Assembly: GCA_963785725.1 (NCBI GenBank)
Contig: CAWAWS010000045.1
Location: 1-18,027 of the forward strand
Length of the DNA stretch: 18,027 nucleotides
Direction of reading: 5' to 3'
Origin: an uncultured delta proteobacterium
GTDB taxonomy: Bacteria; Myxococcota_A; Polyangia; Palsa-1104
The notes beneath the pieces were generated by a model, which was not told the origin of the DNA, did no database searches, and saw only the letters and a program-made list of their open reading frames with translations. The position numbers and the translations under genes are program-made. Of the stretch, positions 2,978 to 18,027 are shown piece by piece (position 1 is the stretch's first letter; each line of letters begins with the position of its first letter).

Positions 2978-4015
2978 ATGAATACTTCGCGCTTATCGAC
3001 TTACTTATCGAGCGGCTTATTAATGGTCTCGGTCTGCGTCACTGCCGCATGCAGCAAGCGGGCGATCGACGGCCCGTCGCGCCTCGACATGACCGCCGGT
3101 GGCGCCGACTTGGCGCCGTCGCCGGGCGGCGACCTGGCCGCCGCCGGCGCCATGACGATCGCCTGGCGCGCGCAGCCGAGCGGCACGACGCAGGTCTTGA
3201 ACGGCGTCTGGGGCTCGGCCGCCGGCGACATTTACGCCGTCGGCATCGGCGGCACCATCTTGCACAGCCGCGGCGACGGCCAGTGGACGGCGCAAACGAG
3301 CGGCACCACGGCCACGCTCAGCGCCGTCTGGGGCGACAGCGCCAGCGACGTCTTCGTCGCCGGCGACAGCATCGTCCTGCGCTCGAGCGGCGACGGCAGC
3401 TGGCGCGCCGAGACGCCGCCCGGCGGACCTTGGCTGGCGGTGTGGGGCTCGAGCGCCAACGACGTCTACATCGCCGGCATCCTCGGCATCGCGCACTCGA
3501 CCGGCGACGGCAGCTGGGTCGACGAGCCGCCGAGCACGCTGCCGCGCGGCTACTTCGGCCTCGGCGGTCGCGGCGCGAACGACGTGTGGGCCGTCGGCGG
3601 CGACGGCCAGACGATGGTCGGCCAGCTCATCGGCGGCGCCGAACGCTTCGACGGCAGCTGGAGCTGGACGGCGCTCGGCTCGACGGAGAACATGAAGAGC
3701 CTCGTCTTCACCGGCGCCGGCACCTTCATCGTCGGCAACGGCGGACAGATCTGGTGCGACAGCGGCAGCGGCTTCGTCCAGCAGGTCTCGAACGAGCCCA
3801 ACGACCTCAACAGCGTCTGGGCCGACAGCGCCGGCACGCTCTTCGCCGTCGGTGGCTGCGGCGGGGTCGTCACCTCGGCCGGCGACGGCGTGTGGACGGG
3901 CGAGAGCACGCCGTCGGCGTTGCCGCTGAACGGCGTGTGGGGCACGAGCGCCGTCGACGTGTACGCCGTCGGCTACGGCGGCGAAATCCTGCATCGCGCC
4001 TACGGCACCGACTAA
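2978..4015 (+). CDS. Lipoprotein with repeated VWGS motifs (WD40/YVTN/BNR-like beta-propeller)
   Basis: Hydrophobic N-terminus with lipobox-like TAAC, a low-complexity linker (DMTAGGADLAPSPGGDLA), then about 7 repeats of roughly 40 aa of the form L-x-x-VWGS-x-x-x-DVYAVG-x-x-G-x-ILH...GDG-x-W. This pattern is common in Myxococcota. Confidence 0.8.
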   Translation: MNTSRLSTYLSSGLLMVSVCVTAACSKRAIDGPSRLDMTAGGADLAPSPGGDLAAAGAMTIAWRAQPSGTTQVLNGVWGSAAGDIYAVGIGGTILHSRGDGQWTAQTSGTTATLSAVWGDSASDVFVAGDSIVLRSSGDGSWRAETPPGGPWLAVWGSSANDVYIAGILGIAHSTGDGSWVDEPPSTLPRGYFGLGGRGANDVWAVGGDGQTMVGQLIGGAERFDGSWSWTALGSTENMKSLVFTGAGTFIVGNGGQIWCDSGSGFVQQVSNEPNDLNSVWADSAGTLFAVGGCGGVVTSAGDGVWTGESTPSALPLNGVWGTSAVDVYAVGYGGEILHRAYGTD

Positions 4016-4029
4016 ATAACCGATAGCGG

Positions 4030-4308
4030 CTATTTCAGGTAGGTCTTGAGCACGTCGAGCAGCTCCTGCGTCGCCTGGGACCGCTTGGAGCTCGGGTTCT
4101 GCTCGGGATCGACGACGTGATGGCGAACGTGGTCCTGGATGACCTCGACGATGAGGCTGTTCATGGCCCCGCGACAGGCGACCAGCGTCTGCATGACGAG
4201 CGTGCAGTCGGCGTCGGCCTCGAGGGAGCGCTCGGCGGCGTCGAGCTGACCGCGCAGCCGGCGCAGCCGCAGCAGCAGCTTGTCGCGATTCTGCGTGACG
4301 TGACCCAT
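4030..4308 (-). CDS. CsoR/RcnR/FrmR-family metal-sensing repressor, RcnR/DmeR-like (Ni/Co)
   Basis: 92 aa with RLRRLRGQL and the ligand fingerprint His3-Cys35-His60-His64, the same numbering as E. coli RcnR. Divergent from a CDF gene. Confidence 0.9.
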   Translation of the reverse strand: MGHVTQNRDKLLLRLRRLRGQLDAAERSLEADADCTLVMQTLVACRGAMNSLIVEVIQDHVRHHVVDPEQNPSSKRSQATQELLDVLKTYLK

Positions 4309-4317
4309 CCGCCATCT

Positions 4318-4338
4318 ATACCATAGGGGGTATGGTAC
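4318..4338. promoter_or_regulatory. CsoR/RcnR-type operator (G-tract flanked by an AT-rich inverted repeat)
   Basis: Perfect inverted repeat TACCATA(4319-4325)-GGGGG-TATGGTA(4331-4337) spanning the 23-bp gap between repressor and CDF. A G/C tract between AT-rich arms is the known operator architecture of this family. Confidence 0.85.
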
Positions 4339-5252
4339 CTGAAATTTCTGCCGCGGAATTGCCGGCGCCGCCCCGCGTTCGCCATGACGAGGCCGAGCAT
4401 CGCCGCGCCGCCAACCGCGCCGTCGCCGTCTCGGCGGCGGGCCTCTTGTTGACCGGCGGCATCGAGCTCGCGCTGGCGCTCGTGACCGGCTCGGTGGCGC
4501 TGCTCGGCGACGCGCTGCACAACCTGGCCGACGTCTCGACCTCGGCCGTCGTCTTCGTCGGCTTTCGCGTGTCCAAGCGGCCGCCGTCGCCGGCGCATCC
4601 GTACGGCTACGAGCGCGCCGAGGATCTGGCCGGCCTCGGCATCGCGCTCGTCATCTGGGGCAGCGCCATCTTCGCCGGTTGGGAGAGCTCAGCCAAGCTC
4701 GTCAGCCACGCCGGCACCGCGCACGTCGGCGTCGGCATGGGCGCGGCCGTGCTCGGGATGGTCGGCAACTTCGCCGTCGCGCGCTACAAGGCGCGGGTGG
4801 CGCGCCGCATCCAGTCGACGACGATGGCGGCCGAGGCCAAGCACTCGTGGCTCGACATGCTGTCGTCGCTGGGCGCGCTGGTCGGGCTCGCCGGCGTGGC
4901 GCTCGGCTACGCCTGGGCCGACGCGCTCGCCGGCTGCGCGGTCACGCTCTTCATCTGCCACGTCGGCTACGAAGTGACCTCCGAGGTCGTGCACCACCTG
5001 ATGGACGGCGTCGATCCGGCGCAGCTGGCGGCGGCGGCGGCGGCGGTGCAAGCGCTGCCGGGCGTGCGGCGGGCGCGGGTGCGCGGCCGCTGGATGGGCC
5101 GCTCGCTCACGCTCGACGTCGAAGGCGAGCTCGCCGACGACGTGTCGCTGGCGACGGCGGAGGCGTTGGCGCCGGCAGTGCAAGACGCGGTGCACGCCGC
5201 CGTCGACGAGGCGCGCGCCGTCACCTGGATTCCGCGCCATCGCCTGCGCTGA
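4332..5252 (+). CDS. Cation diffusion facilitator (CDF) family metal efflux transporter
   Basis: GSVALLGDALHNLAD (TM2 HxxxD), HPYGYERAEDL, HSWLD (TM5 HxxxD), about 6 hydrophobic helices, and a C-terminal dimerisation domain starting LMDGVDP. Start uncertain (ATG 4332 lies in the operator; TTG 4359 is an alternative). Confidence 0.93.
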   Translation: MVPEISAAELPAPPRVRHDEAEHRRAANRAVAVSAAGLLLTGGIELALALVTGSVALLGDALHNLADVSTSAVVFVGFRVSKRPPSPAHPYGYERAEDLAGLGIALVIWGSAIFAGWESSAKLVSHAGTAHVGVGMGAAVLGMVGNFAVARYKARVARRIQSTTMAAEAKHSWLDMLSSLGALVGLAGVALGYAWADALAGCAVTLFICHVGYEVTSEVVHHLMDGVDPAQLAAAAAAVQALPGVRRARVRGRWMGRSLTLDVEGELADDVSLATAEALAPAVQDAVHAAVDEARAVTWIPRHRLR

Positions 5253-5457: not shown

Positions 5458-6475
5458 ATGATGCGAGCGCAGCTTTGGGTGGTGGTGGCTTTGGGGTTGA
5501 TCGGATGTGGCGGCTCTTCACCGGCGCCGCAGCCGACGAGCACGACCGGCGGCTCGGCCGGCGGCAGCGGCGGCGGTGGCTCGGCGGGCGGTGGCGGCAC
5601 CAAATCCGGCGGCGGCAGCTCGTGGCTGACGGGCGCGGTCGGGCTGCTGTTGTCGTCGGACGGCGCCGACGGCACCTTCATCGCGCGCACCGGCCCGACG
5701 AGCGCCGATCTCTACGCGCTCGTCTGCGTCGGCAACTTGGACGGCTGGTCGGCGGGCGCCGGCGGCACCCTCATCGGCACGCACGACGGCGGCGCCTCCT
5801 GGTCGCTCGAGACGAGCGGCGTCACGACCGCCCTGCGCGCGCTCTCGTTCGCCGACGCCCAGCACGGCCTCGCCGTCGGTGACGGCGGCGTCGTCCTGCG
5901 CACCGTCGACGGCGGCGGCACGCTGGAGCCCGGTCAGCGTCGCCACCAGCGTCAGCTTACGCGGCGTCAGCTTGTCGAGCACGCAGGCGTGGATCATCGG
6001 TGACGGCGGCACGCTGCTGCACTCCGTCGACGGCGGCGCCAGCTTCGGCGCGCCTTCGGTGATCGCCGGCGTCGACCTACGCGCCATTCACTTCAGCGGC
6101 GACGGCTCCATCGGCGCCGCGGTCGGCGACGGCGGCACGATGCTCGTCACCCACGACGGCACGAGCTGGCAGGCGTTGCCGAGCGCGCCCGGCGATCTGA
6201 CGGCGCTCTCGATCTCGAGCGACGGCCAGCGCCTCGTCGCCGTCGGCGCCGCCGGCCTCTTGTGGCGCTCGACGGACGGCGCGGCCAGCTGGACCGGCAT
6301 CGCCGGCGGTGGCGCGCGCGCGTTCACGACCGTCGGCTTCTCCGACGACGTCGCCGGCTTGGGCTGGGCCGCCGGCAAAGCGGGCGCGCTCATGGTCACG
6401 CACGACGACGGCGCCTCGTTCGTCGCCCTCGACTCGGGCACGACCAAGGACATCTACTCCGTCGACGATCTGTAG
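5458..6475 (+). pseudogene. YCF48/BNR(Asp-box)-repeat beta-propeller lipoprotein, split by a +1 frameshift near 5917-5923
   Basis: Lipobox LIGC, Gly/Ser linker, and repeats of AVGDGG-x-L-x-T-x-DGG-x-x-W in ORF 5458-6003. The repeats continue in the frame of ORF 5879-6475 after TVDGG. Removing one base restores DGGxxW-SPVSV. Confidence 0.8.
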
Positions 6476-7093
6476 TCAGCGCGTGCTGCCGGCGAGTGCG
6501 GCCAAGTCGGACGCCAGGCGCTCGGGGCCGTCGCGGCTCAGGCCGTCGTAGACGCCGCGCACCTCGCCCGAGCGATCGATCAAATAGAACGCGGGAAACA
6601 GAATGAGCGAGCCATCGGCGACGCCCGCTTCCGACTTGACGAGGCCCATGCCCGCGGCCAGCGCCGGGAACGTTCGCGGATCGGCGGCGAGCAGCTGCCA
6701 GCGGCCGTTCGTCGGCGGAAAGCGGAGCTCGAAGCGCGCCAAGTCTTTCGGGCTATCGGAGGGCCCAATCGAGAACGAGACGAAGCGAATGTCGCCCGGG
6801 CTCTTGTGGAGGACGTCGAGCAGGTGGCGGCTCAAGAGCGAGCAGGTCTCGCCGCACTCCATGAACACGAAGTCGGCCACCCACACGTGGCCGATGAGGT
6901 CGGCGCGACGGAGCGGCTGACCGCGCTGGTCGACGAGCGCGAAGTCGGGCACGGCGAACGGCGGCGTGCGATGGATGGGCACGCCGAACGGCGGCGCGCG
7001 CCGGCTCAGCCGCGACTGCGCGAGCGCGAACGCCGCCCCGAGGCCGAGCAGCAGGCCGAGCGCCACCAAACCGCTGCGTCGCGCGCGAATCAC
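6476..7093 (-). CDS. SCO1/SenC-family protein (CxxxC; conserved His apparently absent)
   Basis: N-terminal TM helix, PDFALVDQRG, VWVADFVFMECGETC, FVSFSI, W-x-LL, FYLIDRSGEVRGVY. The probable start is GTG 7093; the upstream part of ORF 6476-8005 is antisense shadow of the neighbouring gene. Confidence 0.88.
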   Translation of the reverse strand: MIRARRSGLVALGLLLGLGAAFALAQSRLSRRAPPFGVPIHRTPPFAVPDFALVDQRGQPLRRADLIGHVWVADFVFMECGETCSLLSRHLLDVLHKSPGDIRFVSFSIGPSDSPKDLARFELRFPPTNGRWQLLAADPRTFPALAAGMGLVKSEAGVADGSLILFPAFYLIDRSGEVRGVYDGLSRDGPERLASDLAALAGSTR

Positions 7094-7245
7094 GCGTTGA
7101 TTGTGGCACGAGCGCTCGGGCGCGGCTGCGATTACGCGCGGCGGAAGCGCGGCCAATTGGGGAAATGGCCGCGCGATCGGGAACAAGAATCCCAGCGCAA
7201 CCTGCGCTGCGCACGCTATCTCGCCGAAATCGTACGGAGGCGCAG

Positions 7246-7261
7246 CGGCACAGCGGCTGCA
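7246..7261 (+). promoter_or_regulatory. Putative sigma-54 (-24/-12) promoter
   Basis: CGGCACA-GCGG-CTGCA has GG-N10-GC spacing and ends 15 nt before ATG 7277. Confidence 0.55.
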
Positions 7262-7276
7262 AACTACGACGCCATC

Positions 7277-8128
7277 ATGAAACGAAGCGTGTGGCTCATC
7301 TCCTTCGCGAGCGGCTGTTTGGCTTTCGGTGTCTTCGGCGCCCGCGCGCACGCTCACTTCGCGCTGCAGGCGCCGGCCTGCTGGATGTCGCAGAACGCCG
7401 TCGGCATTCCGCTCAAGATGGCGCCCTGTGGCAACGAAGGCGGCGGCACCGCGACGGGCCTGGTGACGACGTATCAAGAAGGTCAGATGATCACGGTGAC
7501 GATCAACGAGACCGTCTTTCACCCCGGCCATTACCGCGTCACGCTGTCGACGACCGATCAGGCGGGGCTGCCGGCCGAGCCGGTGCCGACGGCCAACTGC
7601 GGCGCCGTCACCGTCGAGAATCCGCCGGTGTTTCCCGTGCTCGCCGACGGCCTCTTCACGCACACGACCGCGTTTACGGCGCCGCAGACGGTGCAGATCA
7701 AGCTGCCCGACAACGTGACCTGCACCCATTGCGTCTTGCAGGTGCTGCAGTTCATGGAGAATCAACCGCCCAATCCGACCGGCTGCTTCTATCACCACTG
7801 CTCCGACATCGTCATTCAGGCGGGCGCGGTTCCCGACGGTGGCTTGGTCAGCGGCGGCGTCGACATGTCGCTGGCCGACATGTCGATGGAGTCGTCGGCG
7901 GCGACGCAAGACATGACGACCACCGATCGCGCGCCGGCGTCGCAAGACATGGCGACGGTCGTCGCCGCGCCCGACATGGCGATGCCGAAGGGCACGACCG
8001 TGCACAGCTCGCTGATTCCCGGCTGCTCGTTCGGCGGGCAGGCGTCGCCGGGGTCGGCGCTGGCGCTCGGCCTCGTGCTCCTAGGCTTGGCCGACGTGCT
8101 GCGCCGTCGCCGTCGCAGAGCCGAGTAG
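7277..8128 (+). CDS. Secreted N-terminal-His (His-brace-like) protein, SCE4755 family / polysaccharide monooxygenase-like, with MYXO-CTERM-type anchor
   Basis: Signal peptide ending AHA|H places His first in the mature protein (codon 7355). Motifs HF-x-L-x-x-P...K-x-x-PCG, ETVFHPGHYRV, CTHCVLQVLQFM, YHHCSDI. Asp/Met/Ser/Thr linker. C-terminal GC + hydrophobic helix + RRRRRR. Confidence 0.8.
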   Translation: MKRSVWLISFASGCLAFGVFGARAHAHFALQAPACWMSQNAVGIPLKMAPCGNEGGGTATGLVTTYQEGQMITVTINETVFHPGHYRVTLSTTDQAGLPAEPVPTANCGAVTVENPPVFPVLADGLFTHTTAFTAPQTVQIKLPDNVTCTHCVLQVLQFMENQPPNPTGCFYHHCSDIVIQAGAVPDGGLVSGGVDMSLADMSMESSAATQDMTTTDRAPASQDMATVVAAPDMAMPKGTTVHSSLIPGCSFGGQASPGSALALGLVLLGLADVLRRRRRRAE

Positions 8129-8172
8129 CGCCCGGCGCGCCACGTCTGCCCGTGGCATGATCGCGCGCTGCC

Positions 8173-8625
8173 ATGAAGCGTCTCGTCCTCGCCGCCTTCG
8201 CCTCGCTGCTCCTCCTCGTCGCCGCGATGGTGGCGGGGCGCCTCCTGCTGCTGTCGGCAACGGCGCCGCCGCTGCCGACGCCGCCGCTGCCGCCGGTGAC
8301 GCAGACGCTGTGGCCGGCGCCCGACTTCAGCTATCCCGACCAAGACAATCGCCCGCTGACGAAGCAGCAGCTCTTGGGGCACGTCTGGATCGCCGACTTC
8401 ATCTACACGCAGTGTCGCTCCGCCTGTCCGCTCTTGACGGCGCGGCTGGTCCTGCTGCAGCGCCAGCTGGCCCGCTCCGACGTTCGCTTCGTGTCGTTTT
8501 CGGTGAATCCGGCGCGGCTGGCGAGATTGACGTATTTGCCGACCAGGTCAGCATTCACCCGCGCGACGAAATCGCTGAGGTTGAGATCGAGGTCGTCGAT
8601 GCCGCTGCCGGACTTGGCCGCGTAG
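8173..8625 (+). CDS. SCO1/SenC-family protein, truncated at about residue 115 (junction ~8517)
   Basis: N-terminal [42 protein letters not shown]. The expected DT-P-x-x-L does not follow. The rest of the ORF to 8625 is antisense metG sequence. Confidence 0.85.
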
Positions 8626-9698
8626 TAGTAACGCAGCAAATCCGGATCCAGGTGTTCCAGATAGGTGCGCGCGCGGATGAAAGTGCCGCGCGACTTGCTC
8701 ATCTTGGCGCCGTCGACCGTCAAATAGCCGTTGACCTGCAGGGCGGTGGGCGCACGCAGGCCGGAGCCCTCCAGCAATGCGGGCCAGAACAATCCGTGGA
8801 AATTGACGATGTCCTTGCCGATGAAATGCCAGAGCTCGCTGCTGGATTCGTCGGTGATCAGGCGCTCGGCGTCGAGTCCGTGCTGGGCCGCATAGTGGGT
8901 GAGGGCGGCGAAATAGCCAATGGGCGCATCCAGCCAGACGTAAAAGTATTTGCCGGGCGCATCCGGAATCTCGAAGCCGAAATACGGCGCATCGCGCGAG
9001 ATGTCCCAATCCTTGAGCCCGGCGTCGAGCCATTCGCGCAGCTTCGCGGCGACCGAGGTCTGCAGACAGGATTTACGTAGGCGCGAGTCGATCCAGCCGC
9101 GCAGATAGCCTTCGAATGGCGCGAGATGAAAGAAGTAGTGCTCCGAGAGCCGCCACTCCAGGGCGACATCGGAGAGCACCGAGCGCGGGTCTTTGAGCTC
9201 GCGCGGGGAATAGGTCGAGCCACAGTGCTCGCAGTTGTCGCCATACTGATCCGGCGTGCCGCAGACCGGGCAGGTGCCCTTGATGTAGCGATCCGGCAGG
9301 AACATGCCGCGCAGCGGGTCATAGGCCTGCTCCACGGAACGGGTGACAATGTCGCCCTTTTCTTTCAGCGCGAGATAAATGCGACTGCAGAGTGCGCGGT
9401 TCTCTTCGGAATGCGTGGTGTAGTAGTGATCGAAGGCCACGCCGAAGTCGTGGAAGTCGCGCACGTGCTCGCGGTGGATATCGGCGATGAAGCGCTCGGG
9501 CGCAACACCGGCCTTCTCGGCGGCGAGCATGATCGGGGTGCCATGCGCGTCGTCGGCGCAGAAGTAGTTGACGCGATGGCCCGCGAGGCGCTGAAAGCGC
9601 ACCCAGATGTCCGCCTGCACGTAGCCGACCAGGTGGCCAAGGTGGATCGGCCCATTGGCGTACGGCAGGGCGTTGGTGACGATGATGCGGCGGGACAT
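8403..9698 (-). CDS. metG: Methionine--tRNA ligase, 3'-truncated (homology ends ~8505-8516, about residue 395)
   Basis: [16 protein letters not shown] (HIGH), ADDAHGTPI, Zn knuckle CPVC...[48 protein letters not shown]. The anticodon-binding and C-terminal domains are missing; the ORF tail to 8403 is antisense SCO sequence. Confidence 0.96.
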
Positions 9699-9850
9699 GA
9701 CAAGGCGTTGATAAAGAAAAGATTATGACACAGGGACGGAGCTGGCTCGGGGTTCTGGCGGGATGGTGGAGAAAAGGCAGGCTGCAGCCCGCAGCCGCGC
9801 CCGCGAGCCTGCCGGAGGCGGGTGGCGCGAATGCTAGACTGCGCAGCCTG

Positions 9851-10927
9851 ATGCAATCCCCTACCGCTTCCCCCGTTTCGCTGGCCGAGCGCGTTGCCGA
9901 GTATCTCGATCCGGTCTTGGGTCGCAGCCTCGGCGAGGCCGGCGTCGAACTGTCCGTCGATGAAAGCACGCCCATCCCCACGGTGCGCGTGCGCCTGGCC
10001 TTCCCCGCCGACGGTTATCGCAAAACGTTTGTGGAATCCCTGGCCGCCCACATCGGCGTGCCAGCGAAGATCGAACTGAGCTGGGCGGTCTCGCCCTATC
10101 CCGGAACCGGCACGGCCAGGCATCCCGAGATCAAGAACGTCCTTGCCGTGGCCTCCGGCAAGGGGGGTGTGGGCAAGTCGACCGTCGCGGTCAATCTGGC
10201 ACTGGCGCTCGCCGGCGAAGGGGCGAGCGTTGGTCTTCTGGACGCCGACGTCTATGGCCCGAGCCAGCCCTTGATGCTGGGCGTGCAGGGACCGCCCGAA
10301 TCGCCCGATGGCAAAGTGCTCGAGCCGATCCGCGCCCACGGACTGCAGACGATGTCGATCGGCTACCTGGTGGATCCCGCGCAACCGGTGATCTGGCGCG
10401 GGCCGATGGTCACCCAGGCGCTGTCGCAAATGCTGGGAGATACCCGCTGGCAGGCGCTCGACTATCTGGTGCTGGATCTGCCGCCTGGCACCGGGGATCT
10501 ACAGCTGTCGATGGCGCAGCGCATCTCGGTCGCCGGTGCGATCATCGTCACCACCCCGCAGGACGTGGCGCTGCTGGATGCGCGCAAGGGCCTGCGCATG
10601 TTTGAGAAGGTCTCGGTGCCGGTGCTGGGCGTGGTGGAGAACATGAGCTTCCACGTCTGCAGCAACTGCGGGCACCACGACGCGATTTTTGGCGAGGGTG
10701 GGGGTGGGCGTCTTGCCACGGAGGCGGGTGTCGAACTGCTCGCCCAGTTGCCGCTGGTCCGGCGCGTGCGCGAGCAGACCGATAGTGGGCGACCCCCGGT
10801 GGTGGCGGAGCCGGACGGCGAAACCGCGGGGCTGTACCGCGCACTGGCGCGCCGTGTGGCTGCGCGTCTGGCCTATGGCCGCCAAACCGGCAACGACTTC
10901 CCGGAGATCGTCGTCTCCGAAGACTAA
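9851..10927 (+). CDS. apbC: Mrp/ApbC Fe-S cluster carrier ATPase
   Basis: VASGKGGVGKST, DADVYGPS, WRGPM, DLPPGTGD, VTTPQ, ENMS-x-x-x-CSNC. Divergent from metG, as in E. coli. ATG 9851 is preferred over 9725 because an extended -10 (TGCTAGACT, 9832-9840) precedes it and 9722-9730 reads TGTCATAAT on the minus strand (candidate metG promoter). Confidence 0.95.
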   Translation: MQSPTASPVSLAERVAEYLDPVLGRSLGEAGVELSVDESTPIPTVRVRLAFPADGYRKTFVESLAAHIGVPAKIELSWAVSPYPGTGTARHPEIKNVLAVASGKGGVGKSTVAVNLALALAGEGASVGLLDADVYGPSQPLMLGVQGPPESPDGKVLEPIRAHGLQTMSIGYLVDPAQPVIWRGPMVTQALSQMLGDTRWQALDYLVLDLPPGTGDLQLSMAQRISVAGAIIVTTPQDVALLDARKGLRMFEKVSVPVLGVVENMSFHVCSNCGHHDAIFGEGGGGRLATEAGVELLAQLPLVRRVREQTDSGRPPVVAEPDGETAGLYRALARRVAARLAYGRQTGNDFPEIVVSED

Positions 10928-10969
10928 CCCGCGTTCAGGGTGACATTGCCGCGGCTGACGGGCCTGGGC

Positions 10970-12097
10970 TCAAAACTCGCTCCAGGATCCGTTGGGCAGC
11001 GAACCGAACACCATTCGTGCCGCACTGCGTCCGATGTCGCTGATCCCGGGCGTGTCGATGTTGGCGAGCGTGATGACGTAGGCGTCGCGCTCGGGCAAAA
11101 GCCAGATCGCCGAGCCGGCGCTGGCGTCCTCACCGATGGTGGACAGCAGGCGCTGGCCGTGAAAATCGGCGGCCGCCGTCACATACCAGGCCAACCCCCA
11201 GCCATTCTTTTCCGGCCGGTTCGAGCCTCCTCGCTCGTCCCACATCGCGCGGTAATCGCCCGCGTTGATGAATTCGCGATCGAGCAAGGCCTGGGCGAGG
11301 AATTTGAGTTCCTCCACCGACGACGCCAATACGAAAGATCCTGGCCCGTTCGTCGCGGGTTGCGGCATCACTTCCTGCACCCAGCCGCCGTGGCGCGGAG
11401 CGGGAGTGAACGAGCGCGCGAGATGGATGCCTGCGCTGGTCAGCTCCTCCGGGCTCCCGGTCTTGGTCATCTTCAAGGGATCGAAGAAGTCATCGCGCAG
11501 ATAATCGTGGAAGCTCTTGCCGCTGATCTGCAGGATCAGTTGCTCCAGCAAATCCTGGCTGACGCGGGCGGCGGCTTCGATCGTCGCATGCCCGTGTGCG
11601 CCCTTCGCAGTGCCAAGGGAAGTCGTGGTGAGCGAAGGTCGCGCCGCCTGGCTGAGGAGTTCCAGCACTGGCGTGCTGCTCACCGGAGCCGGCAGATCCT
11701 CAAGGTAAAAGCCGATGGGATTGACCGTGAACAGCCGTCGCTGATCCTGCAGGCGCAAGAGCGTCAGCGCAGTGAGCGCTGGCAACAGGCGCGGAATCCT
11801 GAACGCGGTAGCAGGCGTCGCTTTCTGCGAGATCGAGGGATCGGCGAAGCCATAGCCGCCCTGGAAGATGACCTTCCCATGTTCAACCACGGTCATGGCG
11901 AAGCCGGGGACGCCGAGGGATTCGCAGCGCGACGACATCAAGAGCTTGAGGCGATCGGTCAGCGTAGGCGGAGGAAAGCGCGCCATGGCGATGGAGGGCA
12001 AAACCAGCGCAAGGAGAACAAACAGCCAGCCGAAGCGGGCACGCGCGCGACGCTGCTGCGCCGGGCGTGCGCTCCCATCGGAGGCCATGCGCGTCAT
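10970..12097 (-). CDS. Beta-lactamase/serine hydrolase-fold (AmpC/EstB-like) exported protein with degenerate active site
   Basis: Signal/TM segment, GVPGFAMTVVEHGKVIFQGGYGFAD, ATPATAFRI, ISGKSFHDYLRDDFFDPLKMTKT, GWGLAW, LLPE...VITLAN. SxxK and YxN motifs are absent. Confidence 0.8.
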   Translation of the reverse strand: MTRMASDGSARPAQQRRARARFGWLFVLLALVLPSIAMARFPPPTLTDRLKLLMSSRCESLGVPGFAMTVVEHGKVIFQGGYGFADPSISQKATPATAFRIPRLLPALTALTLLRLQDQRRLFTVNPIGFYLEDLPAPVSSTPVLELLSQAARPSLTTTSLGTAKGAHGHATIEAAARVSQDLLEQLILQISGKSFHDYLRDDFFDPLKMTKTGSPEELTSAGIHLARSFTPAPRHGGWVQEVMPQPATNGPGSFVLASSVEELKFLAQALLDREFINAGDYRAMWDERGGSNRPEKNGWGLAWYVTAAADFHGQRLLSTIGEDASAGSAIWLLPERDAYVITLANIDTPGISDIGRSAARMVFGSLPNGSWSEF

Positions 12098-12106
12098 GCT
12101 GCGATC

Positions 12107-14257
12107 TTACCGGCCTTCGGTGGGTCCTGCGCCCGGCGGTTTCTGATGGGTCAGCAGCCAGCAGCGGTGGGGACGGCGCGCGCGCTGGAAGTCCTCGTCC
12201 AGGGTCTTGTCGGTGATGTCGGTGACCTCGCAGTCCTGGCTCAAGGTCTTGTCGAACGTGAAACGGCGGCGGTTGGTGGAGAAGTAGAGCTGGCCGCCCG
12301 GTGCCAGGCGCTTGAGCAGCGCACGCAGGAGGTCTCCGTGATCGCGCTGCAGATCCAGGGTGTCGCTCATCTTCTTCGAATTCGAGAAGGTAGGCGGGTC
12401 GCAGAGAATCAGATCGAACTCACGGTCTGCGCCGCGTGCGGGTTGCTCGAGCCAACGCAGGCAGTCCGCACGCAGGAATTGATGCGCGGGTCCCGCGAGC
12501 TGGTTGAGCGCGAGATTGGCCTCCGCCCATTCCAGGTAGCGGTTGGAGAGATCCAGGGACAGAGTTCGTGTCGCGCCGCCGCGGGCGGCATGCACCGTGG
12601 CAGAAGCGGTGTAGCAGAACAGGTTCAGAAAACGCTTGCCCTTGGCTTCGCGCTGCAGCCGAAGACGCAGCGGCCGGTGATCGAGAAACAGCCCGGTGTC
12701 GAGGTAGTCGGTGAAATTCACGTAAAAGCGGCAGCCGTGCTCCTGCACGATCTCACGGTCGCGCTTTTGGTCGAGGGGCTCGTACTGATCCGAGCCGCGC
12801 TGTCGCTCGCGCCGGCGCAGGTGTAGGTGGCTCGCTGGAACCTCCAGCTGGGTGGTGACGATGTTCAGCGCCGCTCGCAGGCGCTGCTCCGCCCGCACCG
12901 GATCAATGGTGTCCGGTGCTGCGTATTCCTGCAGGACGACGTGGCGCGGATTGCACTCGTAGACGTCGATGGCGAGCGCGAAATCCGGCAGGTCGGCGTC
13001 ATAGACGCGAAAGGCGCCGACGTCGTTGCGCCGCGCCCAGCGGTTGAGATGACGCGCGTTTTTCTTCAGCCGGTTCTCAAAGTCCTCTGCGTGCACGCCA
13101 CTGGCTTCTCGGGCGACGACGGCCGGGATTTCAAACTGCAGCAGCTTGCAGGGAATCGCGCCGTTGTAGAACGCGTGCATGGCATTCGCGCGCAAGCCCA
13201 TACGCGGCGCAAGGTCCGGGCGTGCGGTGAAGACCGCGGCTCGCCAACCCGGGAAGTAACGGCGCAGGCGCTCGCCCAGCAGGCTCAACACCTTGATGAC
13301 TTCCGCTTCCTCGCCGAGCCGCTCGCCATACGGCGGATTGACGATCACCAAACCGGGTTCTTCGCTGGGGGCGGTGAGCGTCGACAGATCGGCGGGCTCG
13401 AAGTGGACCTGTGCCTGCAGGCCAAGCCGGCGCGCAGCGGCGCGCGCCATCGAGAGCCCCCGCTCATCGAGATCGCGGCCGATCAGCGGCGGCAGCGCCT
13501 GGGCGAGGCCTGCGCTCGCGCGTGCCTGCGCTTCACTGCGCAGTCCTTCCCAGACCGCGGCATCAAAGGAGGATAGCGCCATAAAACCGAAGCGCTCGCG
13601 TGGCAGGCCGGGGGCGAGATCGGCACGCATCGCTGCGGCTTCCAGGACCAGGGTGCCCGAACCGCACATGGGATCGAGCAGGGTTCCCGCCTGCGGCCAG
13701 CCGGCGCGCGCCAACAGGGCCGCCGCGAGATTCTCCTTGAGCGGCGCGGGGGTACCGGAGCGATGCCCGCTGCGCTGATGCAGGCTTGCCCCGGCGAGGT
13801 CCAGGCTGAGCGACGCGGTCTGGCGCGACAGATGCAGGTGCACGCGCAGATCCGCATCCTCCCGATCCACGTTCGGGCGCTCGCCAAGTGCCTCGCGAAA
13901 GCGATCGGCGACGGCGTCCTTGACCCGCACCGCGGCGAACTGGGTGTTGGCAATCAGGGGCGTCTGCCCCGCCACTTCCACCAGAAACGAACGGCGCAGA
14001 TCGAACAGCGCGGGCCAGTCGATGGATTTCGCCAGCGTGTAGAGATCGTTGGCGTCGGTGATGGTCCCGCTGCTGAGCGACCAGAGCACCCGGTTTGCCA
14101 GGCGCGACCACAGGCAGGCCCGGTAGGCGTCTGCCCATTCCCCGCGCCCGGCAACGCCGCCCGGGCGCTCCCTGAGCTCGCCAATGGACAGCTGTCGCAG
14201 CTCCGCGGCCAGCAAGGGTTCGACGCCGCGAGGGCAGGAGAAGAAGAGCGAGATCAT
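12107..14257 (-). CDS. rlmKL: Bifunctional 23S rRNA methyltransferase RlmKL (m2G2445/m7G2069)
   Basis: 716 aa. CLWSRLANRVL, THUMP region, APLKENLAAA, DPMCGSGT, NPPYGERL, FENRLKKN, YDADLP, YLDTGLFLDHR, FLNLFCYT, DPPTFSNSK. Confidence 0.97.
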   Translation of the reverse strand: MISLFFSCPRGVEPLLAAELRQLSIGELRERPGGVAGRGEWADAYRACLWSRLANRVLWSLSSGTITDANDLYTLAKSIDWPALFDLRRSFLVEVAGQTPLIANTQFAAVRVKDAVADRFREALGERPNVDREDADLRVHLHLSRQTASLSLDLAGASLHQRSGHRSGTPAPLKENLAAALLARAGWPQAGTLLDPMCGSGTLVLEAAAMRADLAPGLPRERFGFMALSSFDAAVWEGLRSEAQARASAGLAQALPPLIGRDLDERGLSMARAAARRLGLQAQVHFEPADLSTLTAPSEEPGLVIVNPPYGERLGEEAEVIKVLSLLGERLRRYFPGWRAAVFTARPDLAPRMGLRANAMHAFYNGAIPCKLLQFEIPAVVAREASGVHAEDFENRLKKNARHLNRWARRNDVGAFRVYDADLPDFALAIDVYECNPRHVVLQEYAAPDTIDPVRAEQRLRAALNIVTTQLEVPASHLHLRRRERQRGSDQYEPLDQKRDREIVQEHGCRFYVNFTDYLDTGLFLDHRPLRLRLQREAKGKRFLNLFCYTASATVHAARGGATRTLSLDLSNRYLEWAEANLALNQLAGPAHQFLRADCLRWLEQPARGADREFDLILCDPPTFSNSKKMSDTLDLQRDHGDLLRALLKRLAPGGQLYFSTNRRRFTFDKTLSQDCEVTDITDKTLDEDFQRARRPHRCWLLTHQKPPGAGPTEGR

Positions 14258-14373
14258 CAGAAGGGGATTCGAGTAATGGGGGATTGAGCGTCAAGCGACG
14301 GTCGGTGGTTGGGAGCAGACACGGCCGTCGAGCGCTCCATGCTTTGGCGGAGGTGCCCTGCTATTCTTTTCGG

Positions 14374-15063
14374 ATGACAATGAGCCGTCGTGCCGCGCTC
14401 CAATCGTTGCTGTGTGCGGGACTTTCAGCCTGCGCCAGCGATAGCGGCGTGCCGCCGACGTTCAAGATCCTCTCCGGCCTCTACGATTCCGTTCGCAGCG
14501 GCGGCCCCACCGGGTACCGCAAGACCCCGGAGCAGGTGCGTGAATCGCATTTTGCCTGCTTGGGCGCCCAGGTGGGCGATGGCCCCAAGGCCATTCTGCT
14601 GCTCAATGCTTACGACGGCGATGCCTTGCGCTGGATCTCCGGTGACCAGGTGAGTCTGAAGACGCGATCCGGGCGCCTCTTGGAAACCGCCGGTTTGCCG
14701 CGCGATCTGCGCTCCACCGACTTTGTTCGCATGGATCCGCTGGCGGAGACCCAGTCGGCCGCGGCGCTGGGCCAGGCCTCGACCACCTGGGTCATGGACT
14801 TGTCCGAGCCCGACGAGTACTCGCTGGTCACCCAATCGAAATTCCTGGTGGTGGGCCCCGAGACCATCACGATCATGGACCGCTTGCACCGGGTGATTCG
14901 CGTCGACGAGAGCGTTGCCGTGAATGCCTGGGAGTGGGAGACCGTGAATCGCTACTGGCTGGATGCCGAGACGCTGTTTGTCTGGCGCTCGGAGCAGCGC
15001 TTCTGCAAGCAGCTGCCGATGATCACCCTCGAAGTGCTCAAAGCCCCCGAGCGCAAGGTTTAG
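14374..15063 (+). CDS. YjbF/GfcB-family lipoprotein (group 4 capsule / EPS export associated)
   Basis: SRRAAL...LSAC signal and lipobox. WISGDQVSLKTRSGRLLETAGL and NRYWLD...VWRSEQ...LEVLK resemble YjbF-family motifs. Lies next to a YjbE-like gene and polysaccharide genes. Start is ATG 14374 or 14380. Confidence 0.75.
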   Translation: MTMSRRAALQSLLCAGLSACASDSGVPPTFKILSGLYDSVRSGGPTGYRKTPEQVRESHFACLGAQVGDGPKAILLLNAYDGDALRWISGDQVSLKTRSGRLLETAGLPRDLRSTDFVRMDPLAETQSAAALGQASTTWVMDLSEPDEYSLVTQSKFLVVGPETITIMDRLHRVIRVDESVAVNAWEWETVNRYWLDAETLFVWRSEQRFCKQLPMITLEVLKAPERKV

Positions 15064-15080
15064 ACAAACGCCGGACACAG

Positions 15081-15109
15081 AAAACCCCGCAGGCCTGCGC
15101 CTGCGGGGT
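15081..15109 (-). terminator. Intrinsic terminator between convergent genes
   Basis: Perfect 11-bp stem ACCCCGCAGGC(15084-15094)/GCCTGCGGGGT(15099-15109) with a 4-nt loop. A short U-tract follows on the minus strand, downstream of the YjbE-like gene. Confidence 0.75.
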
Positions 15110-15154
15110 CGCGTCCTATCGTGTCGCCGCGCCGCGCGCGGTCGACCAAAATCC

Positions 15155-15385
15155 TTACTGCGTACTCGAGGACGTGCTGGTCGTCGAGCTGCCGTTGAGG
15201 CCGTTGTTTGGCTGCCGGGTCAAAATCACGATGGCAGCAATCACGCCCGCACCGACCACCCCGTAACCCACCTTGACCAGGGTTTCGTTGTCGTCCGCAG
15301 CGGTAGCGCCCGCATCCTCGGCGAACGCCAGCGGCGTGCCCAACAGGGTCGCCGAAACGATCATGCCCAGAACAAACTTCTTCAC
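15155..15385 (-). CDS. Small secreted YjbE/GfcA-like protein (76 aa)
   Basis: GTG 15385 preceded by GGGAGG. Signal peptide MKKFVLGMIVSATLLGTPLAFA, a second hydrophobic stretch, and a Ser/Thr-rich tail ending STTSTSSSTQ. Size, layout and STQ terminus resemble E. coli YjbE. Confidence 0.7.
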   Translation of the reverse strand: MKKFVLGMIVSATLLGTPLAFAEDAGATAADDNETLVKVGYGVVGAGVIAAIVILTRQPNNGLNGSSTTSTSSSTQ

Positions 15386-15584
15386 GCTGCATTCCTCCCA
15401 GATCGTACAACCGCTCCAGCCTGCACCCCCCAGGGCGCAATTTCCGAAGCTTCGCAAAGCATAGCTAAGCCACTGAGGAAACACCAGCCGGAACGGCCCT
15501 TGATCCCCTCTAGAGGCCGCCAAGGTGAGCCTGCCGACGAACGATGACGTAATGTGCGATCGGCGGTGGCCGTTCGGCCGTCGA

Positions 15585-15590
15585 TATAAT
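15585..15590 (+). promoter_or_regulatory. Candidate sigma-70 -10 box for galE
   Basis: Perfect TATAAT in a GC-rich intergenic region about 90 bp upstream of galE. No recognisable -35. Confidence 0.4.
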
Positions 15591-15681
15591 CTGCAGAAGG
15601 CCGGCGAGTGCCCAAAGGCAGGCAAGCGCCAACGGCTTCCTCCGCCCCGTTTTGACCCCGAGACCCGCCCGGACGACATCG

Positions 15682-16650
15682 ATGAAGACGCTCGTGTGCG
15701 GCGGTGCCGGTTACATCGGGGCGCATATGTGCCGGCTTTTGGCCGCCCACGGCCACCAGGTGACGGTGCTGGATGACCTCTCCACCGGCCATGAGGCCGC
15801 CGTGCGCTGGGGGCCTTTGCGGATTGCCGATCTCTGCGACGCCGACGACCTCGCCCGGGCGTTCGACGAGATCCAACCGGACTGCGTGCTGCACTTCGCC
15901 GCCAAATCCATCGTCCCCGAATCGCAGCGCCGTCCGGCCGAGTACTACCGCAACAATGTGCTGGGCTCCTACCACCTGCTCGAGCAGGTGCGCCGGGTCG
16001 GCGCAGGGATCATATTTTCGTCCACGGCTGCGGTTTACGGTCTCCCGCAGACCCCCCGGCTGCTGGAAACCCACCCGCTGAATCCGATCAATGCCTATGG
16101 CCGCACCAAGCTCGCCATCGAGCATCTGCTGCAGGACTACTGGAACGCCTACGCGCTGCCCTCGGTCAGCTTCCGCTACTTCAATGCCGCCGGCGCAGAA
16201 CCCGAGGCCAGCATTGGGGAGGGGCACGAGCCGGAAACGCATTTGATTCCGCGGCTGCTGGAGTCCGCGCTGGGGCGGCTGCCGACGATTGCCGTGTACG
16301 GCGACGACTACGCCACGCCCGATGGCACCTGCGTGCGCGATTACATCCATGTCGATGACATCTGCGAGGCCCACCTCGCCGGGATGAGCCTGCTCGGCGC
16401 ACAACCGGGGGCACATCGCTTCAATCTCGGAAACGGCGATGGCTACTCGGTGCTCGAGGTGGTCGAAACCACCCGCCGGGTGATCGGCCGGGCCATCGAG
16501 GTGATCCGCGCAGAGCGGCGCCCCGGCGACCCCGATCGCCTGGTGGCGGACGCCACGGCGGCCCGTCAGAGCCTGGGATGGACCCCGCGCAATGCCCTCG
16601 ACGCAATCATTGCCTCAGCCTGGCGCTGGCATCAGCAGCGCCGATTCTGA
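15682..16650 (+). CDS. galE: UDP-glucose 4-epimerase
   Basis: MKTLVCGGAGYIG, DDLSTGH, HFAAKSIVPES, FSSTAAVYG, YGRTK (YxxxK), FRYFNAAGA, GEGHEPETHLIP, TPDGTCVRDYIHV, RRPGDP. Confidence 0.95.
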   Translation: MKTLVCGGAGYIGAHMCRLLAAHGHQVTVLDDLSTGHEAAVRWGPLRIADLCDADDLARAFDEIQPDCVLHFAAKSIVPESQRRPAEYYRNNVLGSYHLLEQVRRVGAGIIFSSTAAVYGLPQTPRLLETHPLNPINAYGRTKLAIEHLLQDYWNAYALPSVSFRYFNAAGAEPEASIGEGHEPETHLIPRLLESALGRLPTIAVYGDDYATPDGTCVRDYIHVDDICEAHLAGMSLLGAQPGAHRFNLGNGDGYSVLEVVETTRRVIGRAIEVIRAERRPGDPDRLVADATAARQSLGWTPRNALDAIIASAWRWHQQRRF

Positions 16651-16669
16651 GCGAGGTTTGCCGCCCGGT

Positions 16670-17482
16670 TTAGTGGGCGCCGGCCTGGGTGAGGACGACG
16701 TAGACCGTGCGCAGCAGGATGCGGATGTCGAGCTTCGCGCAGCGGTTGCGGACGTAGAAGACGTCCAGGGCCACGCGCCGCTTGTAGTCCATGGAATTGC
16801 GGCCGGAGACCTGCCAGAGCCCGGTGATCCCGGGGCGCACGGCGTAGTACCAGCGCGCCGCGCGACCGTAGCGGGCGATCTCCGCCACCGTGACCGGGCG
16901 CGGGCCGATCAGGCTCATCTCACCGCGCAGTACGTTAAGGATCTGCGGCAGCTCATCAATGCTGCTCTTGCGCAGCAAAAGCCCAATCCAGGTCACCCGC
17001 GGGTCATTGACCAGCTTGTGGGTGCGATACCACTCCTCGCGGGCCTTCGGATCGCGCTCGAGCAGTTCGTTCAGCACGCGATCCGCGTTCGGCACCATGG
17101 TGCAGAACTTGAAGCAGGGGAAGGTCTTGCCATTGCGCCCAAGTCGCTGATGGCGAAAGACAATTCCGCTGCCTTGGAGCATCAGGATGGCGGACACCGC
17201 AAGCATCACCGGCGCGAAGGCGATCAGCGCGAAGACGGCGCCGATAAAGTCCACCAGGCGTTTGCCATCAAAGGAGATGGCATGCGTGGCGGGCGCCGAG
17301 GGGCGCCGCGATGGAAGTTCGACGGGCCACGGCCCGACCGAGGCGCTGGTGTGTTGCGCGTCGGTGTAAAAGCGCTCTTGCTTCAAGCGAGCGCTCGCAA
17401 TTGTAGAGACAGCGATGTCACCCCAGGGCCCCCAATCTGACGGCGAGTCTGGAGTCGCCGTTTCCGCATACTCAAATACCAT
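16670..17482 (-). CDS. Priming phosphoglycosyltransferase (bacterial sugar transferase; WbaP C-terminal domain / ExoY-like)
   Basis: KRLVD, one hydrophobic helix, RLGRNGKTF-x-CFKF-x-TM, EW-x-x-x-HKL-x-NDPRVT, RKSSIDELPQILNVLRGEMSLIGPRP, RPGITGLWQVSGRN. Start uncertain (ATG 17482 or TTG 17494). Confidence 0.92.
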   Translation of the reverse strand: MVFEYAETATPDSPSDWGPWGDIAVSTIASARLKQERFYTDAQHTSASVGPWPVELPSRRPSAPATHAISFDGKRLVDFIGAVFALIAFAPVMLAVSAILMLQGSGIVFRHQRLGRNGKTFPCFKFCTMVPNADRVLNELLERDPKAREEWYRTHKLVNDPRVTWIGLLLRKSSIDELPQILNVLRGEMSLIGPRPVTVAEIARYGRAARWYYAVRPGITGLWQVSGRNSMDYKRRVALDVFYVRNRCAKLDIRILLRTVYVVLTQAGAH

Positions 17483-17907
17483 CGCTTGGCCCAAACAGAT
17501 GCTGCGTTAAGACGGCCGGTGGAGCCGCGGAGATCGACGGCTCTGCCTCTCCCAAAACCCGCGGGCCCCTGAGCCCGTTGCCTGCCACTGTGTGTAACCG
17601 GAGCATTCTCTCGGGTTGCACATCCATATTCCGTTTGGCTGCCGGTACAACTCGAACATCCGCCGGCCACCGCTGCGCGGTGCGCGCCGAGTTATACCTG
17701 TTTCTCGCCCTTTTTGAGCCTGCGCTCCCGACCTCTACGGCGTCCTTCCGCGTGCTACGCTGCGCCGGCACGGACCCTCTATTTTCACCCGAACCGCCAG
17801 CCCGGTGACCCCTGAAAACGCGCCAACGGTCGTGCTGGCGATCATACTACAGCCCTCCAAAATTTCCCATTGAATCGAGGGCTTTTGCGCGGGAGTAAAC
17901 CTTAACG

Positions 17908-18027
17908 ATGCGAAGTTCCGACGCGACCGAAAACAGCCCGGCCGACGAGATTGACCTTGGGCCGCTGCTGCGATTCGTCCTGCGCAACGTACCCGGAAAC
18001 GACAATCAAGAAATTCTGCGTCGATCG
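17908..18027 (+). CDS. 5' end of a probable Wzc/Wzz-family polysaccharide chain-length determinant (partial)
   Basis: ATG 17908 downstream of GGGAG reads MRSSDATENSPADEIDLGPLLRFVLRN. DEIDL-x-x-L is the typical Wzz/Wzc N-terminal motif and the context is a polysaccharide locus. Runs off the window and is not in the ORF track. Confidence 0.55.
   Translation, partial: MRSSDATENSPADEIDLGPLLRFVLRNVPGNDNQEILRRS

Follow-up and report, generated by a model that had tools for sequence, protein, structure and literature searches.

Gene content and reconstruction of the locus

The window considered here is an entire 18-kb contig (CAWAWS010000045.1, 18,027 nucleotides) from the 8.9 Mb genome of an uncultured delta proteobacterium (assembly GCA_963785725.1). 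Its left part carries a gene for a probably secreted SCE4755-family protein with a predicted lytic polysaccharide monooxygenase (LPMO) fold, which is followed on the same strand by a gene fusing an SCO domain to cytochrome c and YHS domains. The pairing of these two genes is real, optional and apparently undescribed, and occurs in two to three other lineages; it is not a family-wide system. An earlier, sequence-only reading of the window had described a candidate copper-loading module in which a surface-anchored His-brace-like protein stood between two SCO chaperones. The features of the pair and of its immediate surroundings are listed below, contig C47 being part of the same genome (G000).

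6476-7093, minus strand: divergent stand-alone SCO-like protein of 205 amino acids (PF02630, 38.2 bits; CxxxC formed by Cys80 and Cys84)
7277-8128, plus strand: SCE4755-family LPMO-fold protein of 283 amino acids (NCBIfam NF043005, 127.6 bits against a cut-off of 75; Pfam LPMO_10, 30.6 bits against a cut-off of 23; predicted local distance difference test (pLDDT) score of the model, 97.1)
7277-7354, plus strand: signal peptide, part of the SCE4755-family gene
7355-7822, plus strand: mature domain (His27, Glu78, His82, Met160, Tyr172 and Cys51, Cys149, Cys152 and Cys175), with a low-complexity linker after it
about 8021-8116, plus strand: MYXO-CTERM-like tail (TIGR03901, 18.3 bits, just below the cut-off of 20)
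8173-8515, plus strand: 5' part of the SCO-cytochrome c-YHS fusion gene (PF02630; N-terminal anchor, CxxxC)
G000:C47:175786-174977, minus strand: rest of the SCO-cytochrome c-YHS fusion gene (His ligand, CxxCH haem site, YHS)
8453-8515, no strand: chimeric junction zone, 63 bases in common with C47:175785-175723 at 95% (blastn)
8502-18027, no strand: foreign arm, outside the locus, gammaproteobacterial-like (truncated metG, apbC, a beta-lactamase-like gene, rlmKL, yjbF, galE and a sugar transferase gene)

The window contig is chimeric at about 8505-8515, that is, an assembly error splits the downstream SCO fusion gene. The SCO similarity of the open reading frame that starts at 8173 ends at about 8515, where the truncated end of metG begins on the opposite strand, and two independent contigs cease to match the window at 8515. 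The MetG of the foreign arm is 60% identical to enterobacterial MetG, as against 36% over 166 amino acids to the genome's own copy on contig C26; for apbC and rlmKL, too, the genome has separate copies of its own elsewhere. Among 20 relatives, no DNA matching the foreign arm was found except short or paralogous pieces. Tetranucleotide composition also departs further from that of the genome beyond the join (distance 0.11, against 0.04 before it), a change that lies inside a wide background spread and is supporting evidence only.

The missing C-terminal part of the SCO gene is carried by C47, where it is joined to a foreign kinase gene. The window half and the C47 half are 81% and 87% identical, respectively, to a single full-length protein of 365 amino acids (P0004). 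In run X3, a 602-base contig with a depth of 6.1 lies on window positions 8311-8515 and then stops, and a record of equal length and depth (602 bases, 6.1) sits on the C47 side; both are taken to be one record bridging the two halves. Contigs of run X1 tile positions 6283-8515 with small gaps, one of them covering 8010-8317, the boundary between the SCE4755 and SCO genes, so the gene pair is real in the window. Based on the matches of the two contig halves, their domain content and the bridging X3 record, the true order is the divergent His-less SCO gene, the SCE4755 gene, a fusion gene encoding about 363 amino acids, and then the C47 genes for a peroxidase-like cytochrome, a CMD protein, a beta-propeller-like protein and a di-haem protein. 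What had been read as a second SCO gene does pass the Pfam cut-off and does start exactly 44 bases after the SCE4755 stop, but it is only the N-terminal third of the fusion gene; the chimeric contig had thus concealed two thirds of the partner gene, which illustrates a practical trap of such assemblies.

C47 is itself chimeric at the same gene, and about 20 kb of foreign DNA with shifted composition (G000:C47:175786-195882, or L116:10787 onward in the locus numbering) carries the kinase and sensor kinases. Further foreign contig ends may be present in the assembly. A scan of 6300-8600 returned no sigma-70-like promoter sites, and four terminator-like sites in the same interval were set aside, all being inside or near coding sequence.

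The SCE4755 protein as a candidate His-brace copper protein

The assignment of the middle gene to the SCE4755 family was borne out by a profile search, and the closest named homologues of its product are from Myxococcota. The signs of a secreted, tethered protein were also found again, including AHA before His27, HPGH at residues 82-85, YHHC at residues 172-175 and a tail with a visible Cys motif, transmembrane helix and Arg-rich end, although the MYXO-CTERM score of this tail stays slightly under its cut-off. In the signal cleavage region, the residue at position -3 is small in 163 of 163 homologues (position -1 was a selection criterion). Cys14 in the signal of the window protein is readable as a weak lipobox and is seen in just 3 of the 163. 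Outside L013-L082, 89 of 95 rows have the MYXO-CTERM-like tail, as against 3 of the 71 rows within that mostly acidobacterial and proteobacterial range. Among 401 genomes sampled from the class, 233 carry the family, which also occurs in Acidobacteriota and Pseudomonadota; the class tallies, including the one of 26/401 for the fusion, contain two unpublished genomes, G662 and G686, on which no other result depends. No paper on the function of the family or on its pairing with SCO was found in the literature searched, which was mostly without subscription papers. The preprint on the discovery of myxosortase (10.1101/2023.06.07.544157) does not name the family in its main text; its supplements could list it.

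Structure prediction of the mature protein, which the sequence-only reading had proposed as a check, gave a high-scoring model with an LPMO beta-sandwich fold. The best fold match is the AA15 structure 5msz (Z 13.5, root-mean-square deviation 3.0 over 134 aligned positions), with which Foldseek concurs, followed by X325, AA10, AA11 and AA13 (Z 10.5-10.8); the top 21 rows are all LPMO or LPMO-like. The same AA15 structure is the best sequence-profile match (E 1.9e-7). When the family profile is aligned with 5msz and 4b5q, His82 falls on the second His of the brace and Tyr172 on the axial Tyr. On these alignments, the protein still holds as a candidate His-brace copper protein with a predicted LPMO fold. 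Of the His residues pointed out earlier, His27 and His82 are invariant, but His85, His173 and His174 vary within the family.

Across 165 grouped rows, the residues that do not vary wherever aligned are His27, Cys51, His82, Met160, Tyr172 and Cys175. No Asp is found among the invariant columns; Asp124 is 96% conserved but lies elsewhere in the sequence. AA9 and AA15 have a Glu or Gln two positions ahead of the axial Tyr; it is missing in this family, the position being taken by Cys170 here and by Phe, Tyr, Cys, Asp or Ser elsewhere, and Glu78 may stand in for this second-sphere residue. From LPMO alignments and known AA10 structures, Met160 and Glu78 would both be placed adjacent to the copper. 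Glu78 is replaced in only one clade of 10 among the 165 rows, all belonging to family f78. The members of this clade (L211, L212, L216, L217, L219, L220, L227, L258, L259 and L261) have lost both Glu78 and His129, which are invariant elsewhere, and have gained a second Met at position 158, and 7 of the 10 are linked to an SCO fusion.

The SCO-cytochrome c-YHS fusion and the divergent SCO

The reconstructed fusion protein has the cysteine pair and distal His of a Sco1/SenC site, with the CxxxC in the window half and the His in the C47 half, where the remainder of the SCO domain is followed by the cytochrome c and YHS domains. The Cys-Cys-His set, the CxxCH haem motif and a Met do not vary across 65 aligned fusion proteins, and the YHS domain contains a Cys. 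The fusion family comprises 222 matches at E 1e-20 among 8000 candidates scored.

The divergent gene, described earlier as another SCO chaperone, passes the Pfam cut-off for SCO1/SenC and is separated from the SCE4755 gene by the reported 183 bp if GTG at 7093 is its start, but in the alignment the column of the His ligand and its surroundings contain no His, leaving a CxxxC without the ligand. It is 25-44% identical to small His-less SCO proteins encoded directly before the fusion in L126, L139 and L176, and is therefore assigned to the fusion rather than to the SCE4755 gene. Six SCO-profile matches were found in the genome. Another SCO-like protein, at G000:C33:254902-255576, has neither CxxxC cysteine in its seed translation.

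The genome has two cox loci, both on contig C2, one of which has its own SCO gene about 0.6 kb from coxB; the fusion is therefore free for another client. No cox or cta genes were found in the left arm of the window or in C47:165000-175786. The earlier remark that no oxidase genes are visible is correct for the left arm, but it carries little meaning because all DNA to the right of 8515 is foreign.

Distribution of the gene pair

From the SCE4755 side, 152 loci outside this genome were compared, consisting of the best 80 of 88 loci, all 32 matches in 40 relatives, and 40 hand-picked loci of the class (34 from the 150 matches listed out of 318, and six unlinked f78 loci). Flanks of at least 2.5 kb on both sides were available for 92 of the first 112. 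None of the 152 loci contained an SCO gene, and Pfam SCO matches in the 40 relatives were never near an SCE4755 match; a general enrichment of SCO genes beside SCE4755 genes, as expected from the sequence-only reading, was thus rejected. Weak SCO-profile matches in L015, L016 and L050 proved to be CxxC thioredoxins, and fusion-profile matches in L028 and L037 were YHS domains only. No conserved partner was seen among the neighbours of 82 Myxococcota SCE4755 loci, and carbohydrate enzymes were few, with about five glycoside-hydrolase-like proteins among 198 neighbour representatives (198 of 225 cluster representatives, cut to 450 amino acids and scanned at E 1e-12, from genes called by a crude script). 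Paired SCE4755 genes occur in L236, in tandem, and in L256, divergently.

What does stand beside some SCE4755 genes is one SCO subfamily, the fusion, and this was seen from the fusion side. Among 106 fusion loci (the best 80 of 580 metagenome stretches and 26 from genomes), 10 contain an SCE4755 gene, always on the same strand. It lies directly upstream of the fusion in seven loci, all from family f78, directly downstream in L146, and 3.6 kb away in the identical loci L156 and L158. In the f78 pairs, the start of the fusion frame lies no more than about 50 bases from the stop of the SCE4755 gene. The SCE4755 family is present in 19 of 25 other genomes that carry the fusion, and in seven, all f78 (7/13), the two are adjacent. 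Over 1.09 Mb, 0.12-0.16 fusion loci with an SCE4755 gene would be expected by chance; with two independent events besides the window P is about 0.01, and with three it is below 0.001, the tendency of accessory genes to cluster being ignored. The linked state requires five changes on the SCE4755 tree (a quick tree of 106 rows that kept one acidobacterial row in five) and four on that of the fusion (FastTree, 111 rows).

An SCE4755 gene together with two separate SCO genes was seen in no other examined locus; the pair of SCO-profile matches in L227 are successive parts of a single fusion gene. A three-gene system with two SCO proteins was accordingly rejected, and the dedicated system proposed earlier gives way to an optional two-gene pairing. 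The fusion loci also hold genes for YtkA (9), porin-like proteins (6), MbnP (3), MbnH (2) and multicopper oxidases (4), the corresponding numbers in the 152 SCE4755 loci being 0, 0, 0, 2 and 0. L146:90-7483 is a compact copper island with YtkA/FixH-like, porin-like, repeat, SCO-cytochrome c-YHS, SCE4755, MbnP and MbnH genes. For the natural pair of L211, a complex prediction of the SCE4755 domain with residues 50-389 of the fusion scored 0.06 against a mark of 0.32 and weighs neither for nor against the pairing.

A second cytochrome link

Among longer proteins, the domain was matched 14 times; 11 of the matching proteins have 700-736 amino acids and are 57-62% identical to the first. In these proteins (P0124-P0128 and P0130-P0135), the SCE4755 domain is followed by a MYXO-CTERM-like helix, a second, lipoprotein-like hydrophobic Cys segment and a domain with two CxxCH motifs. 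The eleven di-haem fusion proteins represent one lineage and are known from protein sequences alone, and their di-haem c-type domain belongs to no known family. A free-standing homologue is encoded at C47:169954-171639 (27% identity, E 3e-33), with L116:4955-6526 (C47:169954-171525) as its position in the locus numbering. The genome has two copies of it, and this one lies about 4.5 kb from the SCE4755 gene once the locus is reconstructed. This proximity may be due to chance, because the gene was present in none of the other loci examined. Among the SCE4755 matches listed (150 of 318), none that could be cross-checked adjoins a di-haem gene. Di-haem homologues occur in 49 of the 401 class genomes, and all their Atlas clusters are annotated as 'hypothetical protein'.

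Other genes of the locus

Further features of the left arm are as follows.

2978-4015, plus strand: secreted repeat protein, no Pfam or NCBIfam match
4030-4308, minus strand: divergent metal-sensing repressor (PF02583)
4332-5252, plus strand: CDF metal transporter (TIGR01297, PF01545)

The repeat protein has six clustered homologues (L145, L146, L204, L221, L222 and L223), all in SCO-fusion loci. The context of repressor and CDF transporter (4030-5252) was matched in none of 258 other loci. Between them and the divergent SCO gene, a gene for a Ycf48/BNR-like lipoprotein at 5458-6475 is split into two frames (5458-6003 and 5879-6475), probably by a sequencing frameshift, and has a paralogue on C38. 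Genes for GAF-REC-GGDEF and REC-EAL proteins lie in tandem at 101-2859. On the C47 side, L116:8482-9975 encodes a secreted cytochrome of 498 amino acids with a weak MauG/peroxidase match, convergent on the end of the SCO fusion gene, and is preceded by a CMD/AhpD-like gene (L116:7886-8482).

Proposed mechanism and alternative explanations

The gene pair bears on how secreted bacterial LPMO-fold proteins obtain copper and electrons in the cell. In the reading put forward here, with a rough probability of 0.4, the SCO-cytochrome c-YHS fusion loads copper into the SCE4755 His brace in the periplasm before export. Signal cleavage after AHA would expose His27, and the C-terminal helix would keep the SCE4755 domain attached to the inner membrane, a step that reaches beyond the sequence itself. 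The membrane-anchored fusion might then hand copper to the predicted His27/His82 brace, with Tyr172 as the axial residue, and its haem could set the redox state of the copper or of the SCO thiols. Myxosortase cleavage and type II export would afterwards bring the protein to the cell surface, by the route described for MYXO-CTERM proteins in the available part of PMC11980579. The His-less divergent SCO would act as a thiol-redox helper of the fusion and not as a second chaperone; the fusion would be an optional helper, most SCE4755 genes standing alone and perhaps using other SCO proteins or free copper. Copper loading is preferred over electron supply during turnover because an inner-membrane cytochrome cannot follow the protein to the outer surface. 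At the surface, the copper-loaded protein might oxidise a glycan or hold copper.

Several observations weigh against copper loading by the fusion. The SCE4755-centred loci without an SCO gene include those of the close same-family homologues L085 and L095, and the genome's own SCE4755 paralogue on C24 stands alone. No SCE4755 gene was seen in 96 of the 106 fusion loci (70 of them with at least 1.5 kb upstream), G013 carries both genes on different contigs, and just 26 genomes of the class sample have the fusion, as against 233 with SCE4755. Seven of the 10 linked loci form one inherited clade, to which the L156 fusion is sister, and the seven linked f78 proteins lack the Glu78 that the window protein keeps, so their functions may differ. 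L146 and L156 are broader copper islands, in which co-location need not mean direct transfer. Moreover, LPMOs take up Cu(II) in vitro unaided by a chaperone, according to the part of the preprint 10.1101/2021.09.29.462439 that is available.

Such islands give substance to a different explanation, in which the two genes share a copper regulon or island without direct hand-over and the fusion serves an oxidase, MbnP/MbnH or a multicopper oxidase. The YtkA, MbnP, MbnH and multicopper oxidase genes of fusion loci, the metal repressor and CDF transporter near the window locus, and the large majority of fusion loci that lack SCE4755 would all fit it; what makes it rather unlikely is the tight same-strand pair in the window and in seven f78 genomes, and no other copper gene was recognised beside the f78 pairs except a CusC/B-like set about 5 kb away in L220. 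Mere chance or a recent rearrangement, with no functional link, would account for the close homologues of the window protein that have no partner (L002, L003, L085 and L095) and for the two nearest fusions of known context (L206 and L207), which have no SCE4755 gene, but the same pairing in two to three other lineages exceeds the chance expectation given above and renders this explanation improbable.

Two further explanations assign a different role to the SCE4755 protein itself. It could be a catalytic copper monooxygenase or peroxygenase whose Cu(II) is reduced by the c-type haem of the fusion, with copper loading being secondary. The 11 full-length proteins in which SCE4755 is fused to another c-type domain, one with two haems, the nearby free-standing di-haem homologue, the retained axial Tyr and the reduction of bacterial LPMOs by a c-type cytochrome (PMC8981238, available part) speak for such a module. 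However, an inner-membrane cytochrome would be out of reach if the tail exports the protein, as the accessible text of PMC11980579 would imply; the Gln or Glu two residues before the axial Tyr is replaced by Cys170, glycan-degrading neighbours are not conserved, and the di-haem gene recurs neither in the other loci nor beside the listed SCE4755 matches that were cross-checked, so that this role appears unlikely. The surface copper scavenger that the sequence-only reading offered as its alternative, in which SCE4755 captures copper outside, as in Bim1/X325, and passes it to the SCO fusion for the assembly of cuproenzymes, would draw on X325 as tied second-best fold match (Z 10.8) and on the involvement of X325/Bim1 in copper transport (PMC10952591, in the part available); the invariant Met160 and the missing Glu78 of the linked f78 clade would also suit a non-catalytic site. 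AA15 is nevertheless clearly the better match, the scanned neighbours show no recurring copper importer, TonB-dependent or otherwise, and it is not evident how a surface protein would reach a periplasmic SCO. Because the protein keeps the LPMO-type axial Tyr at an invariant position, whereas the fourth ligand of X325 is Asp (same source), the scavenger is less favoured and seems quite improbable.

A broader and still speculative proposal would combine loading with electron supply. SCE4755 proteins might constitute a His-brace copper redox family, a candidate for a new LPMO class whose second sphere contains Met and Glu, and this family would have recruited partners of the c-type cytochrome kind repeatedly: in some lineages an SCO-cytochrome c-YHS maturase that inserts and reduces copper, elsewhere a fused di-haem domain. 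If true, this would be the first genetically encoded route of copper loading and electron supply for a bacterial LPMO-fold protein, and the Glu-less f78 branch would have turned into a pure copper carrier. In the available part of the preprint 10.1101/2021.09.29.462439, the copper source of the LPMO LpmP is given as unknown and Sco is named as a possibility, and the part of PMC8981238 at hand states that no bacterial electron donor had been identified before CjX183. The pair offers two small soluble domains from one operon for direct transfer tests.

Comparison with known systems

The window protein is a member of NF043005, a hypothetical equivalog family, with a predicted N-terminal His and a MYXO-CTERM-like tail; most members stand alone, whereas this one is paired with an SCO-cytochrome fusion. 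With the AA15 LPMO of Thermobia domestica (5msz), as with AA9, AA10 and AA11, it shares the predicted fold, the second His and the axial Tyr. It is 26% identical to AA15 and differs from it in lacking Glu or Gln two positions before the Tyr, in an invariant Met, in a nearly invariant Glu that precedes the second His by four residues, and in its probable tethering to the membrane or surface. X325/Bim1 (6ibh) has in common with it the predicted fold and, if its signal peptide and tail act as predicted, the N-terminal His and a surface anchor; X325 is fungal and uses Asp as the fourth ligand (PMC10952591, available part), in contrast to the invariant Tyr at the LPMO axial position of SCE4755 proteins.

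For an SCO protein of oxidase assembly, cox or cta neighbours would be expected, whereas the cox genes of this genome are on C2. Sco-cytochrome c fusions occur in Pseudomonas putida. The fusion has the Cys-Cys-His site of Sco1/SenC, with the motif as given in the accessible part of PMC5668878, but its SCO domain is joined to cytochrome c and YHS domains and is encoded beside a candidate client. Service to a client other than an oxidase has a precedent in Streptomyces, where Sco is required to mature the non-oxidase copper enzyme GlxA (PMC4736821, in the part available). Finally, the CjX183 domain of Cellvibrio japonicus Cbp2D resembles both cytochrome links described here in that an LPMO-fold copper domain has a c-type haem domain beside it or joined to it. 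Cbp2D itself is a redox protein that is secreted and binds carbohydrate (PMC8981238, available text), whereas the haem here resides in a membrane-anchored SCO fusion or in a di-haem domain.

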